IMG/VR virus record: IMGVR_UViG_2919450847_000005
Location: 1 to 64,000 of that record
DNA from: a virus
Lineage: Duplodnaviria; Caudoviricetes
Direction: 5' to 3' (one strand)
DNA length: 64,000 nt
Shown: positions 9,638 through 51,321 of the stretch, one piece after another
How positions within the stretch are numbered: the first letter of the stretch is position 1
Layout: every line of letters starts with the position of its first letter
The notes under the pieces: generated by a model
Database searches by the model: none
What the model was told of the DNA's origin: nothing
What the model saw: only the letters and a program-made list of their open reading frames with translations
Translations under genes and position numbers: made by a program

Positions 9638-9639
9638 AA

Positions 9640-10254
9640 TCAGCTCCAGAAAACGAGGGGCATGAGTAGGGAGTTGCGCGGCTTGGAGAAATCCAGCCGG
9701 TGCGGTGAAATTCGCTCGATCTCGGCTTGGGCATCGGCGAGCGCAGCTTGGGCGTCCTCAGCGGCCTGCCGTGCCTCGGCCGCTTCCTGCTGCGCGGCGT
9801 CCCGGGCTGCGATTGCGTCATCGAGCGCTTGCTGTGCCTCCGGCGTGACGTCTCCGGTGTCGCCCTTGTCGCCCTTCCGGCCCTGCACACCAGGTGCCTC
9901 GAATTCAAGCGGGGGCGCGTCCTCGAAGTCGCTGTTGGTCAGCAACCGGACCACGCCGGCGCCGATAGGCTCGCGCTCGTCTCCATCCAGCCGAAAGAGC
10001 TTGAAAGGGGATCGGTAGGCGTGCAGCAGCTTTTCGAGCTGGTTCTCCGGGTAGTGGACCAGGAAGCCGTGCGGCGGGAGGATTTCGATCTCCCCTTCTG
10101 CCGAGGACAACACGATCTCGGTGTCCTCGTCTCCGATGAATTTGGCCGTGATCACCAGTTCCAGATGCGAGTCCGTGAGATCGACATTCTTGACGACACC
10201 GGGAACCGATGGGCCTGTGGCGTTCAGGTGAAAGCGGAGGATCTGGCAGGGCAT
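9640..10254 (-). CDS. Tail fibre or adaptor-like protein with a short collagen-like segment
   Basis: GVQGRKGDKGDTGD Gly-X-Y run followed by an Ala-rich coiled coil. Confidence 0.65.
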   Translation of the reverse strand: MPCQILRFHLNATGPSVPGVVKNVDLTDSHLELVITAKFIGDEDTEIVLSSAEGEIEILPPHGFLVHYPENQLEKLLHAYRSPFKLFRLDGDEREPIGAGVVRLLTNSDFEDAPPLEFEAPGVQGRKGDKGDTGDVTPEAQQALDDAIAARDAAQQEAAEARQAAEDAQAALADAQAEIERISPHRLDFSKPRNSLLMPLVFWS

Positions 10255-28351: not shown

Positions 28352-28581
28352 CAGACGCCCCTCCGGAACGTGGTGAGTACGACCTGGGGCCGCTTCGGCT
28401 TGCCGGCGATCGCGGCCTCGAGGTCGGTGATGATCGCCTTCATCTCCTCGATCGACCGGTACGTGACGTCGCGCTCGCGGAACCGGACACGTGTGGCGCC
28501 GAGGTAGTAGGCCTCTGTGAGGTCTCGCAGCAGTTCGCGCTTATCGGCCGGCGATAGAACGTCGATGTCGATGCCGGGCAT
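28351..28581 (-). CDS. Head completion protein (lambda gpW-like)
   Basis: L.EAY..G...V....R.VTYRS..E...I..LE pattern; TAATG coupling to terminase. Confidence 0.82.
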   Translation of the reverse strand: MPGIDIDVLSPADKRELLRDLTEAYYLGATRVRFRERDVTYRSIEEMKAIITDLEAAIAGKPKRPQVVLTTFRRGV

Positions 28582-30659
28582 TACCAGAAGCTCTCTTTGC
28601 GGCCTCCCCAAAAGCTCGAGGACCGCCGCGCCCCCTGCCGGGGAGGCGAGGCTGGCGGAGTTCCGGATGGAGGCGGGACGTCGGGGGGCGGATCGGCGGC
28701 GGCCCGCCTAATCAGCGGCGGCCCGTCGCGCAGCTTGGAGAGGTTGAGCATCACGAGGGCCGCGCCCTGCATGGCCTCGCAGTCGAGGAAGTGGTTCTCT
28801 CTTGAGCGTCGAGCCCACTTTACCTTGCCGTTCGGAGCCACCGTGCGCGCTTCAGCGACGATCTGTCGGCAGTAGTCTTCCGTGATGTCCTTCGGAAGAT
28901 ACCAAGATCCCGGCGTGTTGTGCAGCCATCTCACCTTCTGCTGAACCCAAGATTTAAGATAATCTGGGTCCAGAAAGACGAGATCGATGCCTTTCTTTAT
29001 TTCCTTGCCATTGATCTTGATGTCGATCTTGCTCACGGAGATCGGCTTGCGCATTGGGCGCGACGAGCCCTTGGTGGCGCGTACCAGGTTGGGGAACCGA
29101 CGTGCGAAAGCATAGACCCGATGTTCGGGAACTATGTACGGCTTGCCGGGGCGGAAGCCTGAATCAACCAGCACCAGCTTGAGCGGCATGCCGCTATAGG
29201 CCTTCGGGTCGGTGATGATGTCGGCGAGTTGCGCCCAGACATCCTCGTCCTCTGGCGCGCCCATCAACTCCGCGGCGTCCACCAGCCAGGACGTTCCGAA
29301 CGCGCCCCATGCACGCACGGTGAAGACGAGACGATCCTTCTGCACGTCGACGGTCATGGTCAACACGCGGCTGCCCGCTGGGACAACCCCCATCTTGTAG
29401 CTGTCGATCGCGCAGTTCTGGACCTCCTTCCACTCCGGCACGTCCCCGCCGCCCGGCGCGTAAAGCTCTCCGAACCCCGCGTTCTTCGCGGTCTGGACGT
29501 CGCCCGGATTGCCGGATCGAACTGCCTCTACATACTCGGCGGCGCGCTGACCGAACGATACGAACGGCGAGCACAGGCCAGACGCCCAATAGCTGATCGT
29601 CCAACTCTCCGGCGGTAGGCCGTGCACGATACCGTCGGAGGTGACGCGCTGCCCCGGCGCCACGTAGACGCCGCGGCGGTTCATCTCCTCCTTGTGCGAC
29701 TCGAGGATGGGATCGGCGCACCCCTGCGGGCATTGGAGGTATGCGGTCTTGCCCGCCAGGACCGGGGTCGAGGGCCGTTCCTTTCCGTCCTTACCCTTCG
29801 GCTTTTCCCACTTCAGGCACTCGAACCGAGGGATGAAATACTCGGCGCAATGCGGGCAGGGCCAAGCCCAGTGATAGCGCGTTCCGCTGAGCCAGAGGCG
29901 CCAGATCGTCGATTGAACCTGCGCCTGCAGCTCTTCCTCATCCTCGGGGCAGGACCAGAAGTCGAGGCCGCTCTCTTCGTCCCTCTCCACCTCGGCAACC
30001 CCCTCGCTCGGCGTCGACGTGATGACGTGGACGAAGTCCGCATAGGTGTACCCTCGGGCGTCCACCGCCGCGACCGGGTTACCGAGACCCTTCAGCGTGG
30101 CCATCATCTCGTCGGCTTCGTCGGTGAGCGCTAAGCCGATCGAATCTGATTTCAGCTCGCCGCTGGATCCGCCATGGGCCATGCGCAGAGAGACGCCGCT
30201 TACAATGCGCGCGGTCTTCATCTGCATCCGACTTGGCGCCATCAAGCTAGCGAGGCTCGTGTTCTCGAGCAGGTCGTCCATGCGCGGGGATAGCCGCTTG
30301 CGGATGAAGCCTTCCGAAGGGGCGACCCACAAAATCGGCACCGGCGACGTGGCGAGGCGCGTGCCGGCGATGTCGAGCATCGTCTCGGTCTTGCCCATCT
30401 GCGCGCCGACCACCACGACGATGCGCCGATGCAGCCGGGAGTGCGCGGCCAGCGCCGGCGCGATCATGTAGGGGGTCTTGTAAGGATCGCGGGGCCCCGG
30501 CACGCCAGTCGAGGATTTATGAACGCGGTTCTCGGCCGCCCATTCAGGCGGCGTCTTCTGGGGCTTGGGCTGCCATAGCCGAATTGCCGACTCGTAGAGC
30601 TTGCTGGCGTTTTGCCGCGCGATCGGCCAATCGTAGTCGGCCCTTGTCGATGATGCCAT
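28581..30659 (-). CDS. Terminase large subunit (lambda GpA family)
   Basis: TPYM, AQMGKT Walker A, DEAD Walker B, STP coupling motif, WPCPHC.E, TVDVQKDR nuclease motif. Confidence 0.93.
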   Translation of the reverse strand: MASSTRADYDWPIARQNASKLYESAIRLWQPKPQKTPPEWAAENRVHKSSTGVPGPRDPYKTPYMIAPALAAHSRLHRRIVVVVGAQMGKTETMLDIAGTRLATSPVPILWVAPSEGFIRKRLSPRMDDLLENTSLASLMAPSRMQMKTARIVSGVSLRMAHGGSSGELKSDSIGLALTDEADEMMATLKGLGNPVAAVDARGYTYADFVHVITSTPSEGVAEVERDEESGLDFWSCPEDEEELQAQVQSTIWRLWLSGTRYHWAWPCPHCAEYFIPRFECLKWEKPKGKDGKERPSTPVLAGKTAYLQCPQGCADPILESHKEEMNRRGVYVAPGQRVTSDGIVHGLPPESWTISYWASGLCSPFVSFGQRAAEYVEAVRSGNPGDVQTAKNAGFGELYAPGGGDVPEWKEVQNCAIDSYKMGVVPAGSRVLTMTVDVQKDRLVFTVRAWGAFGTSWLVDAAELMGAPEDEDVWAQLADIITDPKAYSGMPLKLVLVDSGFRPGKPYIVPEHRVYAFARRFPNLVRATKGSSRPMRKPISVSKIDIKINGKEIKKGIDLVFLDPDYLKSWVQQKVRWLHNTPGSWYLPKDITEDYCRQIVAEARTVAPNGKVKWARRSRENHFLDCEAMQGAALVMLNLSKLRDGPPLIRRAAADPPPDVPPPSGTPPASPPRQGARRSSSFWGGRKESFW

Positions 30660-36681: not shown

Positions 36682-36910
36682 GTGGCTCTCCCCGACCGGC
36701 AGCCTGATCATCGGCACGCTGGAGAACATCCCCGGCATCGCCCGGCTCATCGATATCAGCGACGATGGCCGCATCGAATACCTGGGCGGAACTGACATCC
36801 TTTGGGATGGGCAGGCGACCGTCCAGCGCGACGGCAAGTCGGTCTTCGTCGACGAGGGCGGGGACGAGTGGGCCTTCGACCAGCTGGTGAAGGCGCCGGC
36901 CGATGGATGA
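36674..36910 (+). CDS. Small acidic hypothetical protein
   Basis: GGAGG RBS before MTRWL; coupled. Confidence 0.65.
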   Translation: MTRWLSPTGSLIIGTLENIPGIARLIDISDDGRIEYLGGTDILWDGQATVQRDGKSVFVDEGGDEWAFDQLVKAPADG

Positions 36911-37511
36911 CCTCACCTCTCGACTAGCCGCTAAGCTCCGCGAGGTCTTAGAGTTCTTCAACGACGCGCCCCGCTTCAGCCTGCGCAACAACCGCCGGCG
37001 GGACTCCTATCAGATCGCCGGTGAGATCGACCTCCTGCTCGAGGAAGCGGACGGTTCGGCCCCGCCACCCGCGCCTAGCATCCCCTCGGACACGGCGCTG
37101 AATGTCCGCATGTCGGACGCCAAGAGCTACACGCCGCTGCAGATGGAGGCGGCTCTCTGCGCCTGGGAATGGATGCTCGAGCACCAGTCGCTTGGAGCCG
37201 ACAACACCGACCTCTGGGAAGCCATGGGCGCCAGCGCCATGCGCAATTGCTCGATACAGGCCGGCTGCATCGCGCTGCTGGTCCACGAGCACATGGAGGC
37301 GCAGGGATACGAGTTCATCGGGGCGTACGATTGGGAGTTCGTTCCCTCCATTCTGGAGCGGCTGGACTGGCGGGCACTGGCAAACGACAACCAGTATCAC
37401 CTCGTGCCCTACAGGCCCGATGTCGCGGCGCTGTTCGTGGTCGTCCTCACCGCGGATATGGCAACTCATCCGCCTAGCCACCGCCTCTTTTTCAAGCGGG
37501 GCGCCGCATGA
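36903..37511 (+). CDS. Hypothetical protein
   Basis: 202-aa coupled ORF. Confidence 0.7.
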   Translation: MDDLTSRLAAKLREVLEFFNDAPRFSLRNNRRRDSYQIAGEIDLLLEEADGSAPPPAPSIPSDTALNVRMSDAKSYTPLQMEAALCAWEWMLEHQSLGADNTDLWEAMGASAMRNCSIQAGCIALLVHEHMEAQGYEFIGAYDWEFVPSILERLDWRALANDNQYHLVPYRPDVAALFVVVLTADMATHPPSHRLFFKRGAA

Positions 37512-37912
37512 TCGGCGACCTGTTCCGCGAGGCTCTCCCGCATCGGCTCGCGCCAGACCATCCCGTCCATCTTGTCGGCCCCTATGCCCGCCAGACTCTA
37601 CACGGCTTCCGGCTCAAGTTCTGGTTCGCCATGACGGGGCACAAGGATGGCACTCGGAGGTACGAACTGGCTTTCGATGTCGGCGACCCGAAAGGCAGGC
37701 ACAGGTATCGCGGATCGGGCGAGCCGGGCGACTATCGGGAGCACACCCTGCCGGGTGACCTGTCGCTCTATCCTTCGATGCCGTTCCCGGCGCACGGCCA
37801 GCGCATCGAAGACGCGCTGACGTCGATGCTCACCGGAGACGACCTTGCCGACGTCGTTCGGCTCACGCGCTTCGGCATCATGCCGGCGCGCTGCATCATC
37901 GAGGAGGGCTGA
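37508..37912 (+). CDS. Paralog-array protein P1
   Basis: FWFAMTGHKDGTRRYELAFD and LTSMLTGDDLADVV match the array pattern. Confidence 0.65.
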   Translation: MIGDLFREALPHRLAPDHPVHLVGPYARQTLHGFRLKFWFAMTGHKDGTRRYELAFDVGDPKGRHRYRGSGEPGDYREHTLPGDLSLYPSMPFPAHGQRIEDALTSMLTGDDLADVVRLTRFGIMPARCIIEEG

Positions 37913-37913
37913 C

Positions 37914-38264
37914 GTGCCCGACATCGAAGCGATCAAGGCGAGGATCGACTACCTAGGACGAGCGCCGCACGGCCATAAGGCACGTGTGCTCCATTGGACT
38001 TTCTTCGCGAAGCCCCCGGGCAAAGCCGTCTGGGAGATCACTTTCGACCTAGACGAACGGAGCTTCTCATCCCGAGGGAGGAGGCGAGATCGCATAAAAT
38101 CCGCGCGGACGCCCGCCAGCTTTCACGCCATCCTGATGGCGCTCTTACCGCCTGATGAAATCGCCTATGCAACGGCGGCTTCGATTACAGGCCTGACGCC
38201 GCGGAAGCGCCCGCGCAAGCCAAGCCCCCCCGCCGAGAATGGCACAACCCGGAGACCAGCGTGA
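37914..38264 (+). CDS. Paralog-array protein P2
   Basis: GTG start after GAGGAGG; HWTFF..WEITFDLDERSF; LLPPDEIAYATAASI. Confidence 0.7.
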   Translation: MPDIEAIKARIDYLGRAPHGHKARVLHWTFFAKPPGKAVWEITFDLDERSFSSRGRRRDRIKSARTPASFHAILMALLPPDEIAYATAASITGLTPRKRPRKPSPPAENGTTRRPA

Positions 38265-39166
38265 ACGTCATGACCCAACACCAGTCCGTATCCACCGTCC
38301 TTGCCTCCCGGGCGATGCTCGTATCGCTGTCCATCTCGCAATGGTCCGGCCACAGGCTGGACCGGAAGGTCACCGACGAGGTGAACCAGCAGCACAACGC
38401 CGCCGCTGACGCCGGCCGCTACAACAAGCATCTTCTTCCGAAGGCGGCACTCGCCGGCATCGTCAGCGTCGTGAGCGAGACGAAGGCCGGCTTCTATGGC
38501 CGGACTCTGCCGTGGATGGACAGCGGCGCCCGGATCATGGCGGCGCACGCCTACCTCCCTCACATGGCCTGGATCCGCAAGCAGTCGAGCAAGTTCGACA
38601 AGGCCGTGGACACCTTCATCGGCGCCTATCCGGGATACGTCCGGGACGCCCAGGCCCGGCTGAACGGCATGTTCAAGCCGGAGGATTACCCCGACGCCGA
38701 TGTGCTGCGCGGCAGGTTCGCCATGCAGGTGAAGGTCCTGCCGGTGCCGACCTCCGATGACTTCCGGGTCGATATGAGCGAGGCGCAGGCAGCGATTATC
38801 CGCAAGGAGATCGAGCAGCAGGTGACCGACGCCACCACGTCGGCGGTTCGGGACATCTACGACCGCGTCGCCGAGGTCACGGGCCGCATGGTCGAACGGC
38901 TGAACGCCTACCGGCCGGCGGTGAAGGAGGGAGACCGCGCCGAGGGCGTCTTCCGGGACTCCCTGGTCGGCAACATCCGCGACCTGATCGACGTGCTGCC
39001 GGGGCTCAACATCACCGGGGATCCCCAGCTGGCCGCGATGGTCGAGAAGCTGCGGCCGCTCGCCGAGCACGACGCACATGTGCTGCGCGACAACCCGAGG
39101 ATCCGGCGCGATGTCGCAGCCGAGGCGCAGGCGATCCTCGACAGCATCGGGGGCTTCCTGGCGTGA
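38261..39166 (+). CDS. DUF3150-like protein
   Basis: LVSLSISQWSG.RLDRKVT, AGRYNKHLLP, TLPW, L..MF...DYP motifs. Confidence 0.7.
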   Translation: MNVMTQHQSVSTVLASRAMLVSLSISQWSGHRLDRKVTDEVNQQHNAAADAGRYNKHLLPKAALAGIVSVVSETKAGFYGRTLPWMDSGARIMAAHAYLPHMAWIRKQSSKFDKAVDTFIGAYPGYVRDAQARLNGMFKPEDYPDADVLRGRFAMQVKVLPVPTSDDFRVDMSEAQAAIIRKEIEQQVTDATTSAVRDIYDRVAEVTGRMVERLNAYRPAVKEGDRAEGVFRDSLVGNIRDLIDVLPGLNITGDPQLAAMVEKLRPLAEHDAHVLRDNPRIRRDVAAEAQAILDSIGGFLA

Positions 39167-39459
39167 AGGCGCTCCCGGACGACTTGTGCTTCATCGCAGG
39201 ACGGACGGTCACGGCGCACACGATCACCTGGGAGTTCCGCAGCGAGGCCGAGTTCGCATCGCGTCGGCCTACCCGCTTCTTCCTGGTGATGGACATCGCC
39301 AGCAGAACCTTCGACACGACGCAGCGGCCGACCGCCCCGGCGATTAAGAGCGACTATCCGGCCGGAGTCGAAACCCTGCGCTCGCTCCTTCCGACGAAGG
39401 AACTGGTGTTGGCGACCGCTCTCTCCATCACCCACCGACAATCGGCTCCCCCCGCTTAG
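39163..39459 (+). CDS. Paralog-array protein P3
   Basis: TWEF...FFLVMDIASRTF; LRSLLPTKELVLATALSI. Confidence 0.7.
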   Translation: MKALPDDLCFIAGRTVTAHTITWEFRSEAEFASRRPTRFFLVMDIASRTFDTTQRPTAPAIKSDYPAGVETLRSLLPTKELVLATALSITHRQSAPPA

Positions 39460-39543
39460 CCAGGGCGCGGCAGGCGAGGGCAGGGGCGGGGCGCCATCAC
39501 CCCCAAGATGGCGCCCCGTTTCCTATCAACTGGAGGACCAAGC

Positions 39544-39951
39544 ATGCCGCCAACTTCAAGGCCGGCACCGCCGTCGCACACCATCACCTACCTGCTCATC
39601 CCGGTGATCGGTGACATCAAGACATTCGAACTCGCACGACCTCGCGATGAAGAAGATTACGGCCGGATGCTCCAAGGCATTCGCCAGCATTTCGATGAAC
39701 GTTTCGAGCATGTGGCCGTGCTCTACAACGGAGAGCGCCGGGACATGTTCGTCGGAGAGACCTCGGCGATCAACGGCCGCCACATCCGCAACGTGCGGGC
39801 CACCGCGATCTACCGGGCCAATGCTCGGGCCCAATGGTTGGCGGGGCTGCACTCCCTCGACCGCGTCCCCGTCGTCGGCTTCAACGCCGAAGCCCTGCCG
39901 GCCATCAGCGGCCCGGCGGTCCTATTCCCTGCCACACTCGTCTGGCGCTAA
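39544..39951 (+). CDS. Hypothetical protein (DUF3846-like motifs)
   Basis: GGAGGA RBS; NVRATAIY and ISGPAVLF. Confidence 0.6.
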   Translation: MPPTSRPAPPSHTITYLLIPVIGDIKTFELARPRDEEDYGRMLQGIRQHFDERFEHVAVLYNGERRDMFVGETSAINGRHIRNVRATAIYRANARAQWLAGLHSLDRVPVVGFNAEALPAISGPAVLFPATLVWR

Positions 39952-40007
39952 GCCCTGTGCAGGGCCGCTCCGCATCCCCGCCGATCATGGCGCAAATGGA
40001 GACCTCC

Positions 40008-41009
40008 ATGCATATCAAGTCCGCCGCCCTCAATCTGGCCGACTATCTCGATGAGGACACGCCCGCCTTCATGATGGGGCCGCCTGGCATCGGCAAGTCG
40101 GCCATCGCCCGGCAGATCGCCGTATCGCGCGGCTGGAACCTGATCGACTTCCGCGCCTCGACCCGCGATCCCGTTGCCCTGATGGGGCTGCCCGACCTCT
40201 CCGACGCGACCACGAAGTGGAAGGTTCCCGACGAGTTCCCGCAGGTGGAGCGCGATGGCGAGGAGGGCATTCTCTTCCTCGACGAGCTAAACGCCGCGGC
40301 GCCGTCCATGATGGCCGCCATGTTCGGCCTGGTGCTGGACCGGCGTGTCGGCGACTACCAGCTGCCGCCGGGCTGGCGCGTGGTGGCGGCGGGCAACCGG
40401 CAGGCGGACCGCGCGGCGGCGCAGCGCATGCCGACGGCCCTGGCCAACCGCTTCGCTCACATCGAAGTCAGCGCCGACACCAGCGGCGACCACGACAACG
40501 TCCACGTCGAGCACTTCAACACGATCGGTGTCGACCCGATCCTCATCGCCTTCCTGCGCTTCCGGCCGGCGCTCATCCACAGCATGCCGACCAATGATGC
40601 GCTGGCCTTCCCCACGCCGCGCTCTTGGGAGCAGGCGGCGAAGTACATCGGCAAGCCGTCATCCCGTCGGCTCAGCCTCATCACCGGCGTGGTTGGGGAG
40701 GGCGCGGCGGCCGAGCTCGAAGGCTTCATCCGCGTCTACCAGAACCTCCCGTCGCTCGACCTGGTGCTGTCGAAGCCTGACACCACGCAGCTGCCCGCCG
40801 ATCCGGCGGCTCGCTTCGCCATCTCGGCCGGCCTCGCCCGGAAGGTGGACGAGAGGACGTTCGCCAACGCCATGGTCTACATGCGCCGGCTGCCGCGCGA
40901 GTTCGAGATCATGTTCACCGTCGACGCCGTGCGGCGCGACACCAAGCTCTCGCACACGCCCACCTTCACCGACTGGGCCGTGCGCAACCAAGACGTGACG
41001 CTCGGCTGA
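40008..41009 (+). CDS. MoxR-type AAA+ ATPase
   Basis: GPPGIGKS Walker A, LFLDELN Walker B, VVAAGN sensor 1, LANRF arginine finger, PTPRSWE sensor 2. Confidence 0.92.
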   Translation: MHIKSAALNLADYLDEDTPAFMMGPPGIGKSAIARQIAVSRGWNLIDFRASTRDPVALMGLPDLSDATTKWKVPDEFPQVERDGEEGILFLDELNAAAPSMMAAMFGLVLDRRVGDYQLPPGWRVVAAGNRQADRAAAQRMPTALANRFAHIEVSADTSGDHDNVHVEHFNTIGVDPILIAFLRFRPALIHSMPTNDALAFPTPRSWEQAAKYIGKPSSRRLSLITGVVGEGAAAELEGFIRVYQNLPSLDLVLSKPDTTQLPADPAARFAISAGLARKVDERTFANAMVYMRRLPREFEIMFTVDAVRRDTKLSHTPTFTDWAVRNQDVTLG

Positions 41010-41012
41010 GCC

Positions 41013-41402
41013 ATGGCGAATGCCCCCATCGTGTGGATAGCCGGACCGGTCGGGTTCCAGATCAGCAACTCCATCGAAGCGGATGCGACCATTACCCGGT
41101 TCAGCCATGTGGTCACAGCCGCACGATGGGAGTTCGTCGGCCGCAGCGAAGCGGACGAACTCCGCCGCTGGGCCCTGCGGTTCGAGCTGAGCTCGCGGAA
41201 GTTCACGGTCAACAGCCTGAACGTCAGCAAGTGGGAGCAGGCGCACAGACAGCGCCTGTTCGACCTCTACCGGCCGGCCGCCATTCTACGCCGTGACCTT
41301 GCGGGCCGAAGCATGCTTGCCGCCATGCGATCGATGCTCACCGATATCGAGATCGCGGAGCTCACCGCGCTGGCCATCCGTGGCGGAGCCGCCGATGGCT
41401 AG
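41013..41402 (+). CDS. Paralog-array protein P4
   Basis: RWEF...WALRFELSSRKF; MRSMLTDIEIAELTALAI. Confidence 0.7.
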   Translation: MANAPIVWIAGPVGFQISNSIEADATITRFSHVVTAARWEFVGRSEADELRRWALRFELSSRKFTVNSLNVSKWEQAHRQRLFDLYRPAAILRRDLAGRSMLAAMRSMLTDIEIAELTALAIRGGAADG

Positions 41403-41715
41403 GATCAAGCGCATCTGGGGGCCGAGCAAGCGCGCCGACAGCCCCGGCATGGCGGTGTGGACGTTCTCGGCTGAGCATGAGGACGGTCGCACCGCCATGT
41501 ACCGGCTGACCTTCTTCCTCGACAGCCGGCGATTTAAGGTCAACCACCTCGGCGAGGACAAGCAGGCCAAGGCCTATCTGCAGACCATGCATACCTTGAT
41601 GAAGCCGGACGACGGGATCTTCGAGGGCAAGGTCACCGACATCCTCAAAGCGCGGATCCCTCCGGAGCAATTGGCGGCCGTCACGGCGCGCGCCCTCCTG
41701 CATGGGAGAAAGTGA
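41395..41715 (+). CDS. Paralog-array protein P5
   Basis: VWTF...YRLTFFLDSRRF; ILKARIPPEQLAAVTARAL. Confidence 0.75.
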   Translation: MARIKRIWGPSKRADSPGMAVWTFSAEHEDGRTAMYRLTFFLDSRRFKVNHLGEDKQAKAYLQTMHTLMKPDDGIFEGKVTDILKARIPPEQLAAVTARALLHGRK

Positions 41716-42089
41716 TGGCAATCATCCGCAAGGTGCTCGGCCCGTTCAGCCCTGAGGCTGTTCACCCAGGCACGAAGGACGCGGAGCTGCGCTGGTACTT
41801 CGTCGGCATCCGTGGCGACCAGACCACCGCGCATTGGGCGCTGATCTTCAAGGCAGAGGATCGGAAGTTCACCGTCTCCACCAGCCAACTCGGCAGCGCG
41901 TGGCGCGGGAATTCCATGGCGCGCGCGTCGAGGGAACTCGGCGACGCGTACCCAAGCGTGGTGGTCCATCCCGATGCGTTTCTCGACGGCAGCCCAGTGG
42001 AGGAGGGACGTGTCGTCGACATCCTGCGCAAACGCCTGAACCCTGAGGATTTCGCCAAAGCCACGGCGTTGGCGATTGCTAGGAGGTGA
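41712..42089 (+). CDS. Paralog-array protein P6
   Basis: RWYF...WALIFKAEDRKF; ILRKRLNPEDFAKATALAI. Confidence 0.75.
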   Translation: MMAIIRKVLGPFSPEAVHPGTKDAELRWYFVGIRGDQTTAHWALIFKAEDRKFTVSTSQLGSAWRGNSMARASRELGDAYPSVVVHPDAFLDGSPVEEGRVVDILRKRLNPEDFAKATALAIARR

Positions 42090-42436
42090 GAATGGAGCGT
42101 GCCTATGGCGTAAAGAGGAGGGGGGACTTCCGCTGGATGATCGAGCAGCGCGTCGCTAAGGCGCCCATCATGCGGTTCGATCTGAGGTTCTCGATCGCAA
42201 CCCGCACCTTCGACTGCTCCGTCTGGAAGAGGTATTCAAAGGCCAGCCCATGGATGAATCGCAAACCCGCTACTGAAGCCGAGCTCGCCATGGCGAAGCA
42301 GGCCATCGGCGCCGAAGAAATTGCCCGCTGCGTCGCCGCCTCTCTCGCGACTTCAGGATCGATCGCGGACACCAGGCGCGCCGTGAATTCCTGGCTTATC
42401 GGGACCTCCGACGGCATTCACCCGAGGCGCGCGTGA
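42086..42436 (+). CDS. Paralog-array protein P7
   Basis: RWMI...FDLRFSIATRTF; AKQAIGAEEIARCVAASL. Confidence 0.7.
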   Translation: MRMERAYGVKRRGDFRWMIEQRVAKAPIMRFDLRFSIATRTFDCSVWKRYSKASPWMNRKPATEAELAMAKQAIGAEEIARCVAASLATSGSIADTRRAVNSWLIGTSDGIHPRRA

Positions 42437-42756
42437 CAACACGGCAAGAGCGTTGGCTTGTCGCGATCGAAGGCCCCACCGAACGCACGGCCATTCCCGA
42501 CTGGCATCTCGATAGAGGCGGCGCCATCGAGTGGTGCTGGCGCTTCCACCGGCGCGGCGATAAGACCCGGTCTTATCTTCTTTCGATCAACCTGGGCTCA
42601 AGGGAGTGGCAGGCTCTGCATAAGCCTCGCCGCATTGAAGAAGGGTACAGGTTCCCTTCGCTGTCCCGAGCCATCCCGCTCCTCCGCTCCAGACTTTCTC
42701 ACCAGGACGTCGCCGAACTGACAGCGGCGCTGATCACACGCGGGGCGAAGCCATGA
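42433..42756 (+). CDS. Paralog-array protein P8
   Basis: EWCW...YLLSINLGSREW; LLRSRLSHQDVAELTAALI. Confidence 0.7.
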   Translation: MTTRQERWLVAIEGPTERTAIPDWHLDRGGAIEWCWRFHRRGDKTRSYLLSINLGSREWQALHKPRRIEEGYRFPSLSRAIPLLRSRLSHQDVAELTAALITRGAKP

Positions 42757-43172
42757 AAGCCGAGACGCTGCGCAAATACTATGGCGCTCCGACGCTCGAC
42801 CGGAGTCTTCCGATCCCCAGCTTCGTATGGCACCCGAAGAAGAGAGGGTGGCCGAAGACGAGCTACCGCCTCAGCTACAGCCCGAGCGGCAGGATGTGGT
42901 TCGGTTCGACCCACATTCGCATCAGTCGCCTCACGAAGAATCCCAGCGCAACCGGGCCGCTCAACCCGCCGGATGTCGAGATCCTAAAAGCCGCGCTCAA
43001 GCCCGAGCAGATCGCCATGTGCGCCGCAGCCTCGATCGAGGCGACCAAGCGACCGCAGGGCGATGCGGTCGTGACGGTTTCCCACGTCCAGTACACCCGC
43101 GTCATCAACCTCAAGATCTCCGCCGGGGGGCATACCTTCACCTCTCCGCCCACCAACAGAGGCGTACCATGA
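42753..43172 (+). CDS. Paralog-array protein P9
   Basis: VWHP...YRLSYSPSGRMW; ILKAALKPEQIAMCAAASI. Confidence 0.7.
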   Translation: MKAETLRKYYGAPTLDRSLPIPSFVWHPKKRGWPKTSYRLSYSPSGRMWFGSTHIRISRLTKNPSATGPLNPPDVEILKAALKPEQIAMCAAASIEATKRPQGDAVVTVSHVQYTRVINLKISAGGHTFTSPPTNRGVP

Positions 43173-44326
43173 ACACCGACGATAAGATCCTCGCCGCGAA
43201 GACGGCGCTCATGTGGGACCACCCGTTCTTCTCGGTGCTGCTGGTCCAGCTGAAGATGATCGATGCGACAGACGACCCGCGCATCAACACCATGGCGACC
43301 GATGGGCGGCACCTCTACTACGACCGGAAGTTCGTCGACGGCCTGAAGAAGGACGAGCTCGTCTTCGTGCTGGCCCACGAGGTCATGCACAACGCGATGC
43401 TGCACAGTATCCGACGGCAGGAGCGGCACCACATGCTGTTCAACATCGCCTGCGACTACGCGATCAACGGCGAGCTCAAGGCGTGCAACGTGGGTACGAT
43501 GCCGAAAGCTGGGCTCATCGACGATCGGTTCACAGGCCTCGGCGCCGAGGAAATCTACCGCATCCTGCTGGAGGAGAACCCGGCGGCAGCAGCCGCGGCG
43601 TCGCAGCCTGGCGCGGACCCAGGCGGGTGCGGCGGCGTGCTCGATGGCTGCGCACAGCACGACGAGGCGGCCAAGGCCGAGCTGAAGGCCGAGATCATGA
43701 CGCAGGTGCAGCAGGCGGCGATGGTCGCCAAGGCCACCCAAGCCGGGAAGCTGCCCGCCGGCATCGCGCGGCTCATCGACCAGCTGCTCGCGCCCAAGGT
43801 CGACTGGCGCGCCGTGCTGCGCCGCTTCATCGACGAGTCCTCGCACCGCGATTTCAGCTGGGCCAAGCCGAACCGCCGGCTCATCCCGCACGGCATCTAT
43901 ACCCCGAGCACGATCAGCGACGGCGTCAGCCACATCGTGATCGCGGTCGACACGTCAGGGTCCATCGATGACGCGATCCTTCGGGACTTCGCCGCCGAGA
44001 TCAACGGGGCGTTCGGCGAGGGGGCGGTCGATCGGCTGTCCGTGATCTACGCCGACGCCCAAGTGAACCACATCGAGGAGTTCGAGACCGGCGACGAACT
44101 GGTGCTGCACCCCGCCGGCGGCGGCGGCACGGCATTCAGCCACACGTTCAAGACGATCGCTGACCAGTTCCCGGATGCGCGGGCCACGATCTACCTGACC
44201 GACATGCACGTCTGCGACTTCGGCGAGGAACCGCCCATGCCGACGCTCTGGGGCGTCTATGGGCGGACCAAAGACTTCGGCTCGCTTACCCCGCCGTTCG
44301 GCGAATGCATCAATATCAGCGTCTAG
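43169..44326 (+). CDS. DUF2201-type putative metallopeptidase with C-terminal VWA-like domain
   Basis: TMATDG, LAHEVMH (HExxH), NIACDYAIN, V.AVDTSGS MIDAS, GGGGT.F, YLTD motifs. Confidence 0.9.
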   Translation: MNTDDKILAAKTALMWDHPFFSVLLVQLKMIDATDDPRINTMATDGRHLYYDRKFVDGLKKDELVFVLAHEVMHNAMLHSIRRQERHHMLFNIACDYAINGELKACNVGTMPKAGLIDDRFTGLGAEEIYRILLEENPAAAAAASQPGADPGGCGGVLDGCAQHDEAAKAELKAEIMTQVQQAAMVAKATQAGKLPAGIARLIDQLLAPKVDWRAVLRRFIDESSHRDFSWAKPNRRLIPHGIYTPSTISDGVSHIVIAVDTSGSIDDAILRDFAAEINGAFGEGAVDRLSVIYADAQVNHIEEFETGDELVLHPAGGGGTAFSHTFKTIADQFPDARATIYLTDMHVCDFGEEPPMPTLWGVYGRTKDFGSLTPPFGECINISV

Positions 44327-44338
44327 AAAGGGGCGAAG

Positions 44339-45058
44339 TCACTTTTCCTCCCGCTGAGTGGTGGCAGTGGACACAGCTAAGAAGGCAAAATCCGCCATGA
44401 TAAGCGCGTTGACGCTCGATTTCATGGTGGAATAGGTCACGATACCATGAATGCAGGCATGTCGGTTGGGGACTGGGTCTCGTGAAATGGCCTCGATGGA
44501 TTCCTTTGTCTTCAGCTTTTTGTACATGTGATTTGTTAACTTCTCAATGAGCCCGTACGTAAACATACCGCCACCATCTGCGTACTCTGCGATTACTTCG
44601 CCGGAGCTCCTTTGCAATTCATGGAGGCTTGAAATCATTTTCCCGGGCTCATCTTTTTTATGCCAAGTGATGCGCCCCAATCGCTCAAGTTCCGGAAATA
44701 TCAATCGAGGTACAGATCTATAAAATCCTGCCTCATGGCAATTGATAGCCTCTTCGAATGTCGCTTTAGCTTCATCGTCGATATTGTGTTTGGAGACCGA
44801 GCTGAGCAAAGTGTGGCGGACCGCGATCCAGTTGTCGCGATAAAATTCTTCGAGTCGCAGGTCTAGTATTGCTGGGTCCAGAAATACGGATTCTTCAAAA
44901 TCTGGTGTCGTTGCGTGAGGTAGCCATCCGGATAAGATGACCTGATCAGATCTAGCGATAGCTTTATTGAAACCTTCGACGGCTCTAGATATGTTCCGAA
45001 GGATGTTCGTGAACGGAGTTATGTCGATGCGAGGGAATAACTGTCGAATCGTGGTCAC
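44339..45058 (-). CDS. Low-GC antisense moron with an Rx4H (HEPN-like) motif
   Basis: 239 aa, GAGGGG RBS, NRHACIHG near the C-terminus; AT-richer than flanks. Confidence 0.7.
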   Translation of the reverse strand: MTTIRQLFPRIDITPFTNILRNISRAVEGFNKAIARSDQVILSGWLPHATTPDFEESVFLDPAILDLRLEEFYRDNWIAVRHTLLSSVSKHNIDDEAKATFEEAINCHEAGFYRSVPRLIFPELERLGRITWHKKDEPGKMISSLHELQRSSGEVIAEYADGGGMFTYGLIEKLTNHMYKKLKTKESIEAISRDPVPNRHACIHGIVTYSTMKSSVNALIMADFAFLAVSTATTQREEK

Positions 45059-45183
45059 TTTCCCCTCATCAATCTCAAGAGCATGAGGTGTGATATATAA
45101 CCGTAGTTATCTCATTCTGACAGAAATTTTTAGATCCGCTCACGACCAACGCCCCGCCGCTAATGGCAATCAAGGAGACCGGC

Positions 45184-45792
45184 ATGCCCATCTTCGACAT
45201 CTTCGTGACCAAGAGCGGCGTGGAGCGCCATAGCGTGAATGCTGCTTCTTTCGCTGACGCGCTGAAGCTTTTTCATTTCGGCGAAACGACCATCAAAGAC
45301 GACGTGACGAGTGACATCGCGCAAGTCATTTTCGAGGATCGGGAGACGGGAGCGCGTCTCACCGACGAGCAGATCGAGGCGGGTGCGAGCGAGAACGCCG
45401 AACCCGTCGTCCGCTCGTATGGCGTCCGGCTGTGGGGCACCTTCCGCGGCTGCGCCACCACGGAGGTCGAGGCGACCAGTTTCGAAGAGGCGATGGCGAA
45501 GGCAGCCGAGCTTGAGCACTTATACTTCGGGTTCTCGCTCGAGGACGGGATCGAGGGCGATCAGACGATGAGCGTGTTCGGCCCGGCGGACGACGCTCCC
45601 GACGATGAGGATGCCTGGGGCGGGGACGGCACGGAAATCGACAAGCGCGACGACGGCGAGCCCTTCAGCTGGGACGCGGTGAACATCGTGAAGGATCTGG
45701 CCAAGGCCAGCCCCGACGGCAACACCGAGATCATCATGACGCTATCGACGTTCATCGACCGTGCGAAGAATGCCTGCTCGAAGGAATCGTAG
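45184..45792 (+). CDS. Acidic hypothetical protein with an internal V.A.S..[DE]A repeat
   Basis: GGAGACC RBS before MPIFD. Confidence 0.7.
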   Translation: MPIFDIFVTKSGVERHSVNAASFADALKLFHFGETTIKDDVTSDIAQVIFEDRETGARLTDEQIEAGASENAEPVVRSYGVRLWGTFRGCATTEVEATSFEEAMAKAAELEHLYFGFSLEDGIEGDQTMSVFGPADDAPDDEDAWGGDGTEIDKRDDGEPFSWDAVNIVKDLAKASPDGNTEIIMTLSTFIDRAKNACSKES

Positions 45793-45794
45793 AC

Positions 45795-46085
45795 GTGAAC
45801 CCGGCGCGTCTCCGGCCGCTGATCGCAAAGGTCGAGGTATGCGAGAGCCACACCGACAAGAACGCGATCTACATCGACTTCTGTGACGAGCAGCGCACAC
45901 GCTGGTACGTCATATTCCTGACCAAGCGGCGGGGCTTCGGCGTCGCGCGGCGCTTGCGCCCGGATGGGCAAGGCGGCTGTGAAATTCCTGCCCGCCTCCG
46001 AACCTACCTGATCTCCATCATACCGCCCGACATCATCGCCCGCTGCACGGCCGCCACGCTCGGCCTTAACGCCGCCCGAGACTGA
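45795..46085 (+). CDS. Paralog-array protein P10
   Basis: YIDF...WYVIFLTKRRGF; LISIIPPDIIARCTAATL. Confidence 0.7.
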   Translation: MNPARLRPLIAKVEVCESHTDKNAIYIDFCDEQRTRWYVIFLTKRRGFGVARRLRPDGQGGCEIPARLRTYLISIIPPDIIARCTAATLGLNAARD

Positions 46086-48530: not shown

Positions 48531-49697
48531 ATGAACGCTCACGCCCGTATTGCGTCTGCCGCTACCTTCGCCTCGCTCGATTATCCGGCATTCAAACTCG
48601 CCATGGTCAACGCCTGCAAGGTCATCGACCGGCGGAACACCATCCCCGTGCTCGCGATGGTGATGATCAAAGCCACGAAGGGCGGCGCCTCCATCATCGG
48701 GACCGACCTCGATCTCTACACCACGACCTTCGTGCCCGGCACGGTGACGTCCGACTTCACGGTGCTGGTCGATGCCCACCGGCTGAAGGCGACGCTGGAC
48801 AAGGTCAAGGATGCTGCAACCATCAATTTCGCCATCGATGACGCCGCGCTCGTCACGTCGATCGGCAAGCTGAACCTGTCCCTGCACCGCGGCCTGGACG
48901 CCAGCGAGTTCCCGCTCGAAGCGGCCTTCCGCACGGCGTTGGGCACTTCGAACTGCTCCTTCGTGCTGCCGGCCGCGACCATCGCCGCTGTCCTCGACAA
49001 GGTCTCCTTCGCCGTCTCGACGGAGGAGACCCGCTACTACCTCAACGGCATCTACATGCACGTCGACGAGCACGAGCAGAAGCTCTGCTTCGTCGCCACC
49101 GACGGGCACCGCGCCGCGCTCTACAAGGTCGATGTGCCCGCCGGCGCCGGCGCGCTCCCGGACGCCGGCATTATCATCCCGCGCAAGACAGTCGCCGAGC
49201 TGCATCGGATGGTCAGCCGCAATGGGCGAGCCCAGGATGCCATGGTGACGGCTGCTGAGAAAGGCGTGTCCTTTCTGGTGGGCGAAGACGAGCTACTCGA
49301 GTCGAAGGCGATCGACGGCACCTTCCCCGACTACGGCCGCGTGATCCCAACCAGCAACCGGCACCGTGTCGGCATCCCCTCGGCCCCCCTGATCGATGCC
49401 ATCAGGCAGGCGAGCTCAATCATGTCGGAGAAGAGCCGGCGCACCAGCCTTTCGTTCTCGCCGGGCCGCCTGGTTGTCAGCTGCTCTTCTCCCGAGTTTG
49501 GCACCGCCTCAACGGAAGTGCGCATCACCAGCGACTTCGAACTCTCCATCGGCTTCAACGCCGGGTACCTCATGCAGCTGCTCGGCCAGCTGGATGGCGG
49601 CGCCATGCTGGAAATCGACGACCCGTCCGGCCCGGCGGTGATCAAGGATGGCGCAGATCCAGCCATCACCTATGCGCAGATGCCGATGCGCATCTGA
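48531..49697 (+). CDS. dnaN: DNA polymerase III beta sliding clamp homolog
   Basis: R.TIPVL, GTDLD, FAVSTEETRYYLNGIY, VATDGHR, IIPRK, IDGTFPDYGRVIP, IGFN..YL motifs. Confidence 0.93.
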   Translation: MNAHARIASAATFASLDYPAFKLAMVNACKVIDRRNTIPVLAMVMIKATKGGASIIGTDLDLYTTTFVPGTVTSDFTVLVDAHRLKATLDKVKDAATINFAIDDAALVTSIGKLNLSLHRGLDASEFPLEAAFRTALGTSNCSFVLPAATIAAVLDKVSFAVSTEETRYYLNGIYMHVDEHEQKLCFVATDGHRAALYKVDVPAGAGALPDAGIIIPRKTVAELHRMVSRNGRAQDAMVTAAEKGVSFLVGEDELLESKAIDGTFPDYGRVIPTSNRHRVGIPSAPLIDAIRQASSIMSEKSRRTSLSFSPGRLVVSCSSPEFGTASTEVRITSDFELSIGFNAGYLMQLLGQLDGGAMLEIDDPSGPAVIKDGADPAITYAQMPMRI

Positions 49698-49761: not shown

Positions 49762-51321
49762 GTGACTGCACTCCTCCCCACCAACACCGTCGAGCAGATC
49801 TGCGCCTTTCGCGACGAAGCCATCCGCCGCTACGACGCGGCCTTCGACGTCATCCAGGCCGCCGGCGACGCCGTGAAGGAAGCCGGGATCCTTTGGGAGA
49901 AGGCCTCGCCCGGGCGGCATGCCCACTGGTCCGATCAGGCGGAGGAAGTGAAGGCCTTCTTCCATGCCGTGCGTGTACCCGATCGCGAGCAGTTCCGGCG
50001 CACGGCGCGTCGGCTCATCGACGTCACCGTGTGGACGCACATTATTGAGCTCTCCGGCATCGAGGCGCTGATGGACGCGCAGGCGAAGCAGGAGCTGCGC
50101 GACCAGATGCGCTATGTCCCCGAGCGCACCGACAGGGAAGGCCAGTTGATCAATCAGGACGAGATCGCTCGCATGCTGCCGGAGGTCACGCCCGAGAACG
50201 TCTACGCCACGCTCGAGCACTTCCAGAGCCAGGCCGAGATCATCTTCCGCCGCGGAATCGTCAACGTGTTCTCGAAGCTGGACCGGCGTTTCCGCTCGCA
50301 CGACGGGTTCAAGGTCGGGTCCCGGCTGATTCTGAACTACCTCGTGAGCAGCGACACCGGGCACTTTTCCAACTATGGCGACCGCGCCGACATGCTGGCG
50401 GACGTCGAGCGAACCTTCCTCGTGCTGGACGGCAGGCCGGCGCGTGCACGGTATGCCGGCATCGGCGAGCAGATTTCGGCAGAAAGGCGCTTCAACGCCT
50501 TCAAGCCGCACCAGTCCGAGCACCAAGGCGACTACTTCAAGGTGAGGATCTTCAAGAACGGGAACGCCCACCTGTGGTTCGCCCGGGATGATCTCGTCGA
50601 GAAGGTGAACCGCATCCTCGCCGACCACTATGGCGAGGTGCTGGGCGACGGCCAGACGCAGGAAGCCGACCCGCTGCAGGAGAAGAAGCTGACGCCGGCG
50701 CGCCGCTTCGGCTTCTTCCCCAGCCCTGACGAGGTGGCCGAGCGCGTCGTGCGCAATGCCTATGTCCTCCGTCCCGCCAACCAGGAGCGGCTGCGCATCC
50801 TCGAGCCGTCGGCCGGCACCGGCAACCTTGCCCGGCGTTGCGTCAAGCGGTTCGATCCCAAGGACTGGGGCCATTACGCCGAGCGCTATCGCGATGAGTA
50901 TCGCTGGGACAACCTGGTCGACTGTGTCGAGATCCAGCCTGAGCTGGCCAACCAGCTGACCGCCGAGGGCATCTACAATCGGGTCACCTGCGCCGACTTT
51001 CTCGCGATCCGCCCCAACGAGCACCGGCTATATGACCGGGTGGTGATGAACCCGCCGTTCGATCGCGAGCGGGACATCGACCACGTCATGCACGCCCTCG
51101 ACTTCCTGAAGCCGGACGGCTGCCTGATCGCCGTCATGTCGGCCGGCACCGAGTTCCGGGAGACCCGCAAGTCCATCGCGTTCCGCGCGCTGATGGAGAA
51201 GATGAAGGCGGTTTGGGATGACCTTCCGGCTGGCTCCTTTGCGGAGGCCGGAACCTACGTTAACACCATGATCCTTCGAGTCTGGAAGGATGGGCGACAT
51301 CAGTACGGGCTCGATCGATGA
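49762..51321 (+). CDS. Orphan amino-DNA methyltransferase with DUF4942-like N-terminus
   Basis: ILEPSAGTGNLA SAM-binding motif, VMNPPF catalytic motif; YFKVRIFKNGNAHLWF. Confidence 0.88.
   Translation: MTALLPTNTVEQICAFRDEAIRRYDAAFDVIQAAGDAVKEAGILWEKASPGRHAHWSDQAEEVKAFFHAVRVPDREQFRRTARRLIDVTVWTHIIELSGIEALMDAQAKQELRDQMRYVPERTDREGQLINQDEIARMLPEVTPENVYATLEHFQSQAEIIFRRGIVNVFSKLDRRFRSHDGFKVGSRLILNYLVSSDTGHFSNYGDRADMLADVERTFLVLDGRPARARYAGIGEQISAERRFNAFKPHQSEHQGDYFKVRIFKNGNAHLWFARDDLVEKVNRILADHYGEVLGDGQTQEADPLQEKKLTPARRFGFFPSPDEVAERVVRNAYVLRPANQERLRILEPSAGTGNLARRCVKRFDPKDWGHYAERYRDEYRWDNLVDCVEIQPELANQLTAEGIYNRVTCADFLAIRPNEHRLYDRVVMNPPFDRERDIDHVMHALDFLKPDGCLIAVMSAGTEFRETRKSIAFRALMEKMKAVWDDLPAGSFAEAGTYVNTMILRVWKDGRHQYGLDR

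Follow-up and report, generated by a model that had tools for sequence, protein, structure and literature searches.

A prophage MoxR-VWA locus filled with a new family of divergent small proteins

The prophage in the window (i.e. the whole 64,000-nucleotide stretch of viral DNA that was analysed) contains ten very divergent copies of one family of small (about 95-140 aa), mostly basic proteins, woven through an ATPase/protease module that is widespread in phages and plasmids. This locus is a new form of MoxR-VWA system, filled with a new small-protein family. No description of such an array was found in the literature searched, in agreement with the initial annotation, whose ten ORFs were all confirmed at their positions. 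The features of the locus are as follows.

36903..37511, + strand: 202-aa protein of no known family (no Pfam, PHROG, NCBIfam or PADLOC match); ends in a stop that overlaps the member 1 start
37508..37912, + strand: member 1, 134 aa, pI 6.7 (external HMM E 1.1e-11)
37914..38264, + strand: member 2, 116 aa, pI 11.1 (leave-one-out E 1.6e-7; external HMM E 3.3e-14)
38261..39166, + strand: divergent DUF3150-like protein, 301 aa, the conserved third gene of the module (homologs carry PF11348)
39163..39459, + strand: member 3, 98 aa (leave-one-out E 1e-6; external HMM E 1.1e-8)
39508..39951, + strand: conserved 147-aa protein, no family match (same-position homologs in loci L018, L019 and L024-L026)
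39976..40006, + strand: repeated leader motif that includes a Shine-Dalgarno sequence and immediately precedes the ATPase start
40008..41009, + strand: MoxR-type AAA+ ATPase, 333 aa (AAA_5, phrog_1297, Walker A)
41013..41402, + strand: member 4, 129 aa (leave-one-out E 5.5e-12); belongs to the 'first after the ATPase' subfamily
41395..41715, + strand: member 5, 106 aa, the modelled representative (leave-one-out E 6.4e-12; AF2 pLDDT 89.7)
41712..42089, + strand: member 6, 125 aa (leave-one-out E 3.8e-13)
42086..42436, + strand: member 7, 116 aa, pI 10.8 (leave-one-out E 1.5e-5; external HMM E 5e-12)
42433..42756, + strand: member 8, 107 aa (leave-one-out E 1.4e-8; external HMM E 3.2e-13)
42753..43172, + strand: member 9, 139 aa (leave-one-out E 5.7e-5; external HMM E 1.6e-15); its stop overlaps the VWA start (ATGA)
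43169..44326, + strand: DUF2201 metallopeptidase-VWA protein, 385 aa (DUF2201_N, DUF2201, phrog_1314)
45163..45792, + strand: 209-aa protein, no family match (Pfam, PHROG, NCBIfam, PADLOC), followed by member 10; same gene pair in L024
45795..46085, + strand: member 10, 96 aa (leave-one-out E 0.008; external HMM E 1.6e-8)

All ten ORFs are genuine genes and belong to a single family. Leave-one-out HMMs (Z=1000) recovered eight members with E-values of 1.5e-5 to 3.8e-13 and members 37508 and 45795 with E ~0.008, and a second HMM, built solely from relatives outside the window, scored all ten (E 1.6e-8 to 2.3e-29). Matches to the family HMM in the window, and in the whole 5.6-Mb genome, were exactly these ten. 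The proposal of a single paralogous family with a conserved scaffold and a variable remainder is supported. The members had also been said to share little else, and BLASTP reached E<1e-3 in just 4 of 45 paralog pairs. Such weak pairwise similarity, and the abundance of spurious ORFs in high-GC DNA, would suit a chance or compositional resemblance or ORFs that are not genes, but this is extremely improbable and is ruled out by the profile searches and conserved synteny: profile E-values fall to 1e-29 with the next best window ORF (six-frame) at 0.3, homologs are conserved at the protein level in many independent contigs, GC3 in frame is 0.69-0.87 and the model of member 41395 is confident. Descent of the members from the DUF3150-like or the VWA protein was rejected using HMM search and hhalign (probabilities <=0.2%). 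No family match was obtained for any of the ten in Pfam, or for two or three members each in the PHROG, NCBIfam and PADLOC libraries. A PDB profile search with the family gave a best E of 0.034, and a homolog search by word index, run with the family profile, yielded just 11 proteins, none with a name beyond 'hypothetical protein'.

Motif conservation was scored on an alignment of 105 sequences using the numbering of member 41395. Both motifs of the initial annotation coincide with conserved columns of this alignment. In the N-terminal motif, W22, F24, W/Y36, L38, F/Y40, R45 and F47 each occur as listed in 90-97% of sequences, or in 94-100% when positions are scored by class (i.e. aromatic at 22, 24, 36, 40 and 47). 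In the second motif, L84, K/R85, L88, I/L93 and A94 occur as listed in 79-92%, and T97 and A98 in 65-68%. The polar near-invariants are R45 (102/105) and an acidic residue at 91/92 (99/105) in proteins that are otherwise basic, with a family median pI of 10.0 and 92% of members above pI 8. The AF2 model of member 41395 is a five-stranded beta-meander packed by C-terminal helices. An earlier suggestion that the C-terminal helix forms a conserved tag was not upheld, as its conserved positions are mostly hydrophobic or small with helical-face spacing and the modelled helix (pLDDT ~95) lies inside the compact fold. Since the N-terminal motif is equally conserved, both motifs look like the fold core; that both consist mostly of core hydrophobic residues argues against an exposed C-terminal tag. 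Searches with the member model gave a best E of 0.1 for Foldseek against the PDB, a best Z of 4.5 (SpoVG) for VIA-align (wide), where the stated noise range is Z under 8, a best E of 0.007 with TM 0.31 for BFVD, and sub-threshold matches only (best 0.79) for an ESM Atlas feature search. As modelled, the small proteins thus constitute an undescribed family with a confidently predicted fold and no clear relative in the PDB or BFVD.

The basic character of the family raises the possibility that the members are small nucleic-acid-binding proteins that, early in infection, coat the DNA or RNA of the phage or help to organise it; loading or remodelling of them by the machine would be optional in this view. 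The high pI values, the near-invariant Arg together with a conserved Lys/Arg, and the position of the module beside replication genes (DnaN here; helicase and polymerase in N4-like phages) are consistent with such a role, as are the weak top structural neighbours, which are beta-beta-beta-beta-alpha nucleic-acid binders (SpoVG; Pur-alpha, Z 4.1, rmsd 1.6 over 45 residues). This role is nonetheless improbable, as the structural scores lie inside the noise range, searches gave no match to a known motif or family for DNA or RNA binding, and one member is near-neutral (pI 6.7).

The ATPase, whose start was corrected from 39834 to 40008, scored above the Pfam thresholds for AAA_5 (29.1 bits, cut-off 22) and AAA (26.5 bits, cut-off 21.2), contains the Walker A motif GPPGIGKS, matches phrog_1297 (E 2.3e-82) and has a VWA partner gene in the same operon, as is characteristic of a MoxR-type ATPase. 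The core of the leader motif before it also occurs upstream of the ATPase in L039. The VWA gene, with its true start at 43169, matches DUF2201_N (E 1e-47, 163.5 bits), DUF2201 (E 6.4e-20, 71.9 bits) and phrog_1314 (E 8.6e-99). Its product has an N-terminal HExxH metallopeptidase-like domain and a VWA domain with an intact MIDAS motif, and both HEVMH (H70/E71/H74) and the MIDAS residues DTSGS..T..D (D261/S263/S265/T321/D345) are invariant in 15 relatives. By sequence, these features identify it as a DUF2201 metallopeptidase-VWA protein. The DUF3150 label proposed for 38261-39166 draws on homologs and not on the window copy, which is best called DUF3150-like: the latter falls below the Pfam threshold (no Pfam match at E<=0.01; no hit to PF11348 at E<=1 in a six-frame search of the genome), but several homologs with 50-62% identity carry PF11348 or are named DUF3150. 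A model of this protein (pLDDT 88.8) is a long helical bundle with a small sheet, and its structural matches (Z<=9.6; designed proteins, talin, ClyA/XaxA) were taken as uninformative generic helical bundles. In L021 and phage Phosso no gene separates the ATPase gene from the VWA gene, and in the distant relatives L033 and L038 the DUF3150-like gene lies between them.

Among 1.8 billion proteins, ~178 representative clusters matched the family at E<=1e-3. All nine representatives looked up (E 1e-13 to 1e-4) were encoded between the ATPase and VWA genes or directly after the VWA gene, confirming the anticipated linkage to the triad of MoxR ATPase, DUF2201 VWA and DUF3150-like genes. Related loci were gathered with the VWA protein as probe. 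Every family-bearing locus fetched had the order DUF3150, ATPase (phrog_1297), 3-6 members, VWA (phrog_1314). These loci belong to temperate Hyphomicrobiales myoviruses, and the family is specific to the early operon of one lineage of them. Copy number varied between related prophages (0, 3, 4, 5 and 6), as had been predicted, and the ten copies of the window were the highest number seen. The module occurs without members in L021, L027, N4-like and jumbo phages and plasmids, and no member was seen without the module among the representatives and loci examined, so that dependence is one-way. In L027, the slot between ATPase and VWA holds an unrelated low-GC antisense cassette, indicating that the array is dispensable and the slot tolerant of foreign cargo. 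No family member was found in 60 related genomes (36 of the same genus) outside the genome of the window, megablast of the locus against plasmids and phages and tblastn of member 41712 against isolated phages gave no match, and the family was absent from isolated phages and both plasmid loci scanned. Small ORFs between the ATPase and VWA genes of Ralstonia and Simplicispira plasmids were rejected as distant members (HMM, nothing below E 0.36), as was a paralogous relationship of the 202-aa and 209-aa proteins (BLASTP E 90). A weak homolog of the 202-aa protein sits after the VWA gene in L004. In the window, the VWA gene is directly followed by a low-GC antisense gene; the operon also includes an orphan methyltransferase and further early genes, and DnaN is encoded near the module.

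The diversified effector repertoire put forward in the initial annotation finds no support here: by their phylogeny the paralogs are old and fall into positional ortholog groups common to several phages, not into recent lineage-specific bursts. Positional clades are retained between phages with enzymes of 48-83% identity. In other phages, the subfamily of member 1 is encoded ahead of the ATPase gene (it forms a clade with L019/L024/L025/L020/L039 members, support 100/98), member 4 belongs to a positional clade of 7 rows (support 95/85), the clade of member 6 takes in Brucella prophage members and the sister of member 10 is an L024 member likewise placed after a 209-aa gene (support 100/95). 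A 71%-identical homolog (P0003) backs the start of member 5. Members evolve approximately twice as fast as the module enzymes: across the six closest loci, members share 33-49% identity as compared to 66-83% for the neighbouring enzymes. GC3 is also lower (0.69-0.87 versus 0.90-0.92).

Faster evolution and lower GC3 would suit a reading of the members as independent early accessory proteins (e.g. for host takeover or anti-defence) that occupy a permissive slot, are transcribed together with the ATPase and VWA genes and do not work with their products. This is a realistic possibility: the slot takes other cargo (the L027 cassette; an HNH gene in an N4-like phage), copy number ranges from 0 to 10, and the antisense gene after VWA, the orphan methyltransferase and other early genes fit the same pattern. 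Against it, members were never away from the module in the nine look-ups, subfamilies such as 'first after the ATPase' are stable across divergent phages, PADLOC yielded no known anti-defence or defence family and translational coupling is tight on both sides. For six members (37508, 39163, 41712, 42086, 42433 and 42753) the start precedes the upstream stop by 4 nt, member 41395 overlaps the upstream gene by 8 nt, members 37914, 41013 and 45795 start 1-3 nt past the upstream stop and the VWA start forms an ATGA overlap with the end of member 42753. Through these stop/start overlaps, members are translationally coupled to the ATPase, VWA and DUF3150 genes.

The members most likely work, we tentatively propose, with the MoxR/VWA machine as interchangeable specialised partners. 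This proposal draws on linkage and translational coupling, with physical interaction and any target inferred. Members in the early operon are co-transcribed and translationally coupled with the ATPase, DUF3150-like and metallopeptidase-VWA genes, and would act as clients or substrate adaptors of the machine. The conserved core would keep the fold, the near-invariant Arg and a conserved carboxylate where the last helix begins may form a common contact (e.g. with the VWA MIDAS site), and the fast-evolving surface could give each paralog its own target. Family specificity, linkage to the module in 9/9 cases, positional clades, polar near-invariants and invariant MIDAS and HExxH motifs favour the partnership. 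Against it, most phages and plasmids have a module that works with no members, four of the ten are encoded outside the stretch from ATPase to VWA, the array is dispensable (L027) and no sequence or fold similarity points to any function. As the family-bearing loci are all of one syntenic prophage lineage, linkage may also reflect shared ancestry of gene order and not function. It is conceivable, if rather doubtful, that a single remodelling or proteolytic engine is aimed at several host or phage targets through paralogs with a shared core and docking residues and different surfaces. If true, this would provide a first functional handle on a module of hundreds of phages and plasmids. The up to ten fast-evolving paralogs in the operon are candidate partners or substrates open to direct testing; as adaptors they would make the targeting of a viral AAA+ machine modular, and if they are not adaptors they remain a set of early phage paralogs that is ancient and unusually large.

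The locus was compared with known systems. T4-type internal proteins (IPI-IPIII) are small, basic and variable, and share a conserved targeting peptide that the prohead protease cleaves. By description, the members resemble them in being small, basic, fast-evolving and variable in number, with a conserved element and a protease encoded nearby. They differ in that their conserved elements are fold-core residues and not a short cleavable leader, the locus lies outside the head-gene module and relatives of the module occur on plasmids. For jumbo phages, a role of a MoxR and metallopeptidase-vWA pair in virion assembly with proteolytic processing was proposed by Iyer et al. 2021 (PMC7824862), the only proposal found for the MoxR/peptidase-VWA pair. 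The window shares both gene families (phrog_1297/phrog_1314). They are paired in about 750-810 phage records, N4-like and jumbo phages among them, and in 133 plasmid records (many Burkholderiales, Rhodococcus and others). In contrast to the virion-assembly proposal, the neighbours of the pair are early or replication genes both in the window and in an N4-like phage, and plasmids also carry the pair. MoxR hexamers act via a VWA partner, and the NorQD target requires specific surface carboxylates and an intact VWA domain (PMC9976466). As in NorQ-NorD, CbbQ-CbbO, RavA-ViaA and CobS-CobT, a MoxR-type ATPase (AAA_5) gene adjoins a VWA gene with an intact MIDAS. Unlike in these couples, the VWA protein of the window begins with an HExxH peptidase-like domain, a prophage carries the locus and a DUF3150-like third gene is conserved; no large client enzyme is obvious nearby, and 3-10 paralogous small proteins are encoded in the operon.

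All ten small ORFs that the initial annotation had grouped as one paralogous family (named by their starts, i.e. 37508, 37914, 39163, 41013, 41395, 41712, 42086, 42433, 42753 and 45795) exist as described. In leave-one-out searches of a nine-member profile against the tenth (Z=1000), eight of the ten were recovered with E-values of 1.5e-5 to 3.8e-13, the two weakest, 37508 and 45795, scoring about 0.008. A profile built from 145 non-window relatives matched 10/10 members at E<=1.6e-8, the next six-frame ORF of the window having an E-value of 0.3, and family profile searches of the window and of the whole genome returned these ten and no others. A single family is thus borne out by both types of profile. 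As BLASTP gave E<1e-3 in only 4 of 45 member pairs, the initial description of two shared motifs and little similarity otherwise is justified. In an alignment of 105 sequences (numbering of member 41395), the first motif corresponds to W22, F24, W/Y36, L38, F/Y40, R45 and F47, and the second to L84, K/R85, L88, P90, E/D91-92, I/L93, A94, T97, A98 and I/L101.

The members are interspersed with a three-gene module inside a large prophage; the genome that carries the prophage measures 5.63 Mb in 55 contigs.

Genes of the module and of the surrounding prophage
28581-30659, minus strand: terminase gpA
minus strand: lambda-type portal, capsid, tail sheath, tape measure, baseplate J, tail fibre and lysozyme genes
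38261-39166: DUF3150-like gene
40008-41009: MoxR-type AAA+ ATPase (AAA_5 above threshold; phrog_1297, E 2e-82)
43169-44326: DUF2201 protein, with DUF2201_N (HExxH) and DUF2201 (VWA) domains (phrog_1314 match)
48531-49697, plus strand: DnaN clamp
49762-51321, plus strand: DUF4942 protein with a C-terminal DNA methyltransferase domain (PADLOC mad2-like, E 5e-14)

Both HEVMH and the MIDAS residues (D-x-S-x-S, T, D) of the VWA protein were invariant across 15 relatives. The label DUF3150 is correct if the gene is taken as a divergent member, since homologs at 50-62% identity reach PF11348, although the window copy itself falls below it. Distant relatives (VWA 31-38% identical) have the gene order ATPase, ~250-300-aa protein, VWA, as do Ralstonia and Simplicispira plasmids, and the middle protein in two fetched loci (L033 and L038) is recognisably homologous to the DUF3150-like gene product; the order in distant relatives therefore identifies these three genes as the core module. 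The module is widespread: matches to its VWA protein numbered 752 among phage records and 133 among plasmid records, and its ATPase matched 810 phage records.

Early or accessory genes form a long plus-strand run from ~33 kb, with DnaB, primase and RecT farther along. A DUF4942 gene is syntenic across all related prophages and also lies near the ATPase/VWA module on a Simplicispira plasmid (L002). The locus is most closely related to prophages of Brucella (formerly Ochrobactrum) tritici and pecoris, Ensifer and Rhizobium, and to IMG/VR contigs; named homologs of one gene occur in Shinella, Aurantimonas, Pseudovibrio, Roseibium and Phyllobacteriaceae. These hosts and homologs therefore place it in a Hyphomicrobiales temperate myovirus lineage. 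Among the structural genes, the capsid domain (Phage_capsid_4) of an 808-aa ORF (24592-27018, minus strand) is confined to residues 488-805, which suggests either a fused protease/scaffold and major capsid protein or a mis-called start overlapping the portal gene.

Two gene boundaries were revised within the block. The ATPase starts at 40008, not 39834, directly 3' of a repeated leader motif containing GGAGA, and the start of the VWA gene, at 43169, forms an ATGA overlap with the end of member 42753. With corrected starts, the junctions of each member with its neighbours are either overlaps of 4-8 nt or gaps of <=3 nt, and these tight junctions include the ATPase, VWA, DUF3150-like, 202-aa and 209-aa genes. 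The leader motif (core CCCGCCGnnnATGGC) has five exact plus-strand copies in the window (33205, 38229, 39977, 45153 and 49732) versus 1.56 expected, and extends to about 31 nt ending in GGAGACC in three of them. Four copies (38229, 39977, 45153 and 49732) lie just upstream of the starts of block-leading genes (DUF3150-like, ATPase, 209-aa and DUF4942-methyltransferase, one copy overlapping the start); no clear gene start follows the copy at 33205. Among the fetched loci, L039 carries this core ahead of both the DUF3150 and the ATPase gene, L040 has it ahead of DUF3150, and in L018 and L019 it lies 3' of the VWA gene. The motif may partition the early operon into units of translation or processing. 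Three conserved plus-strand genes of no known family belong to the same syntenic block (147 aa, 39508-39951; 202 aa, 36903-37511; 209 aa, 45163-45792), and a member directly follows each of the last two. An antisense gene (44339-45058, minus strand, 239 aa) directly 3' of the VWA gene, with a GC of 0.48 and GC3 of 0.53, had no match in Pfam or PADLOC and looks like a moron.

A full HMMER scan of 1.84 billion representatives yielded 178 clusters at E<=1e-3, 17 of them at E<=1e-10, all of 85-198 aa. Nine of nine representatives looked up, spanning the whole score range, were flanked by an AAA ATPase gene and a DUF2201 gene or came immediately after DUF2201. Gene order was constant in the fetched loci, i.e. 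DUF3150, (147-aa gene), (member), ATPase, 3-6 members, VWA, and at some distance beyond it the 209-aa gene, a member, DnaN and DUF4942. No members were found in 60 related genomes, in isolated phages or in the two plasmid loci scanned. Dependence is therefore one-way: members always occur with the module, whereas the module often occurs without members. The initial annotation's linkage to MoxR/DUF2201/DUF3150 loci thus held, as did variable copy number: family-bearing relatives had 3, 3, 3, 4, 4, 4, 4, 4, 5, 5, 5, 6 and 6 members, the window's ten were the most among the loci scanned, and two relatives (L021 and L027) had none. The ATPase gene of L021 directly adjoins its VWA gene. L027, a related IMG/VR prophage, has in the ATPase-VWA slot, in place of members, a low-GC (0.52-0.55) antisense cassette (8989-9902, minus strand) whose products are a membrane-like protein of 191 aa and a second protein of 107 aa. 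Foreign cargo is thus accepted in this slot.

In a maximum-likelihood tree of 54 members, well-supported groups shared gene position.

Positional groups in the tree (support)
first gene after the ATPase, including 41013 (95/85)
group with 41395 (96/94)
group with 41712 (97/82)
group upstream of the ATPase in other phages, including 37508 (100/98)
member after the 209-aa gene, 45795 with L024 (100/95)

The positional groups argue that the paralogs are old and partly specialised by position, rather than products of a recent burst. Six window members have a recognisable ortholog by position, and their best matches among the loci sampled were 34-49% identical; those of the other four were 31-37% identical. 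In the six closest loci (L018, L019, L024, L020, L026 and L025), the ATPase and VWA proteins were 66-83% identical and the DUF3150-like protein 54-73%. GC3 was 0.69-0.87 in members versus 0.90-0.92 in the enzymes.

An AlphaFold2 model of member 41395, generated from the 105-sequence alignment, was confident (pLDDT 89.7, pTM 0.78), with strands at 2-8, 14-28, 33-41, 46-51 and 72-78 and helices at 56-68, 80-85 and 90-104. Aromatic, aliphatic or small residues occupy the great majority of conserved positions, and the conserved positions of the last helix (93, 94, 97, 98 and 101) have the spacing of one helical face in a segment with pLDDT of about 95. Both motifs are therefore predicted to form the core of the fold, which argues against the conserved C-terminal tag proposed initially. 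Three polar features are nearly invariant: R45 (102/105), K/R85 (93/105) and an acidic side chain at position 91 or 92 (99/105). The family had no match in Pfam (all ten members searched), in PHROG, NCBIfam or PADLOC (two or three members each) or in PDB sequences, and the model had no clear structural match with Foldseek against the PDB (best E 0.1) or in BFVD (best E 0.007 at TM 0.31). Nucleic-acid binding, a secondary rival reading of the members' role that is compatible with the others, is suggested by the basic charge of the family (median pI 10.0; 92% above pI 8; 9/10 window members at pI 9.1-11.1) and by a weak likeness to SpoVG (best Z 4.5) and Pur-alpha (Z 4.1) in VIA-align against 48,161 chains. 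The basic pI rules out a DNA-mimic type of anti-restriction protein.

The best reading, we infer, is a functional tie of the members to the ATPase/VWA-peptidase module, on account of exclusive one-way linkage, translational coupling on both sides and persistent positional subfamilies. The main rival reading takes the members as independent, fast-evolving early proteins having only the operon in common with the module. Two caveats attach to a functional tie: a single syntenic lineage accounts for every family-bearing locus, so that linkage may be inherited gene order, and the slot takes up foreign cargo and the array can be lost. For a functional tie, NorQ-NorD offers an analogy: activation there depends on specific carboxylates at the surface of the target and on a VWA domain that is intact (PMC9976466). 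By this analogy the conserved carboxylate and arginine of the members are candidates for docking, and the specificity of each paralog would come from its variable surface.

The initial observation is thus confirmed and extended, and its interpretation partly supported, in that family, linkage and variable copy number hold; the proposed tag and effector roles are not borne out or are only hypothetical. The module is already known; what appears undescribed is the family of small proteins and the way it is interwoven with the module, no account of such an array having been found in the searched literature, as initially stated. The sole discussion of the MoxR and peptidase-vWA pair found there concerns jumbo phages, for which a role in virion assembly with proteolytic processing was proposed (PMC7824862). 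In contrast, the pair lies among early/replication genes both here and in an N4-like phage, and is also present on plasmids, a location and an occurrence that do not fit well with the virion-assembly proposal.
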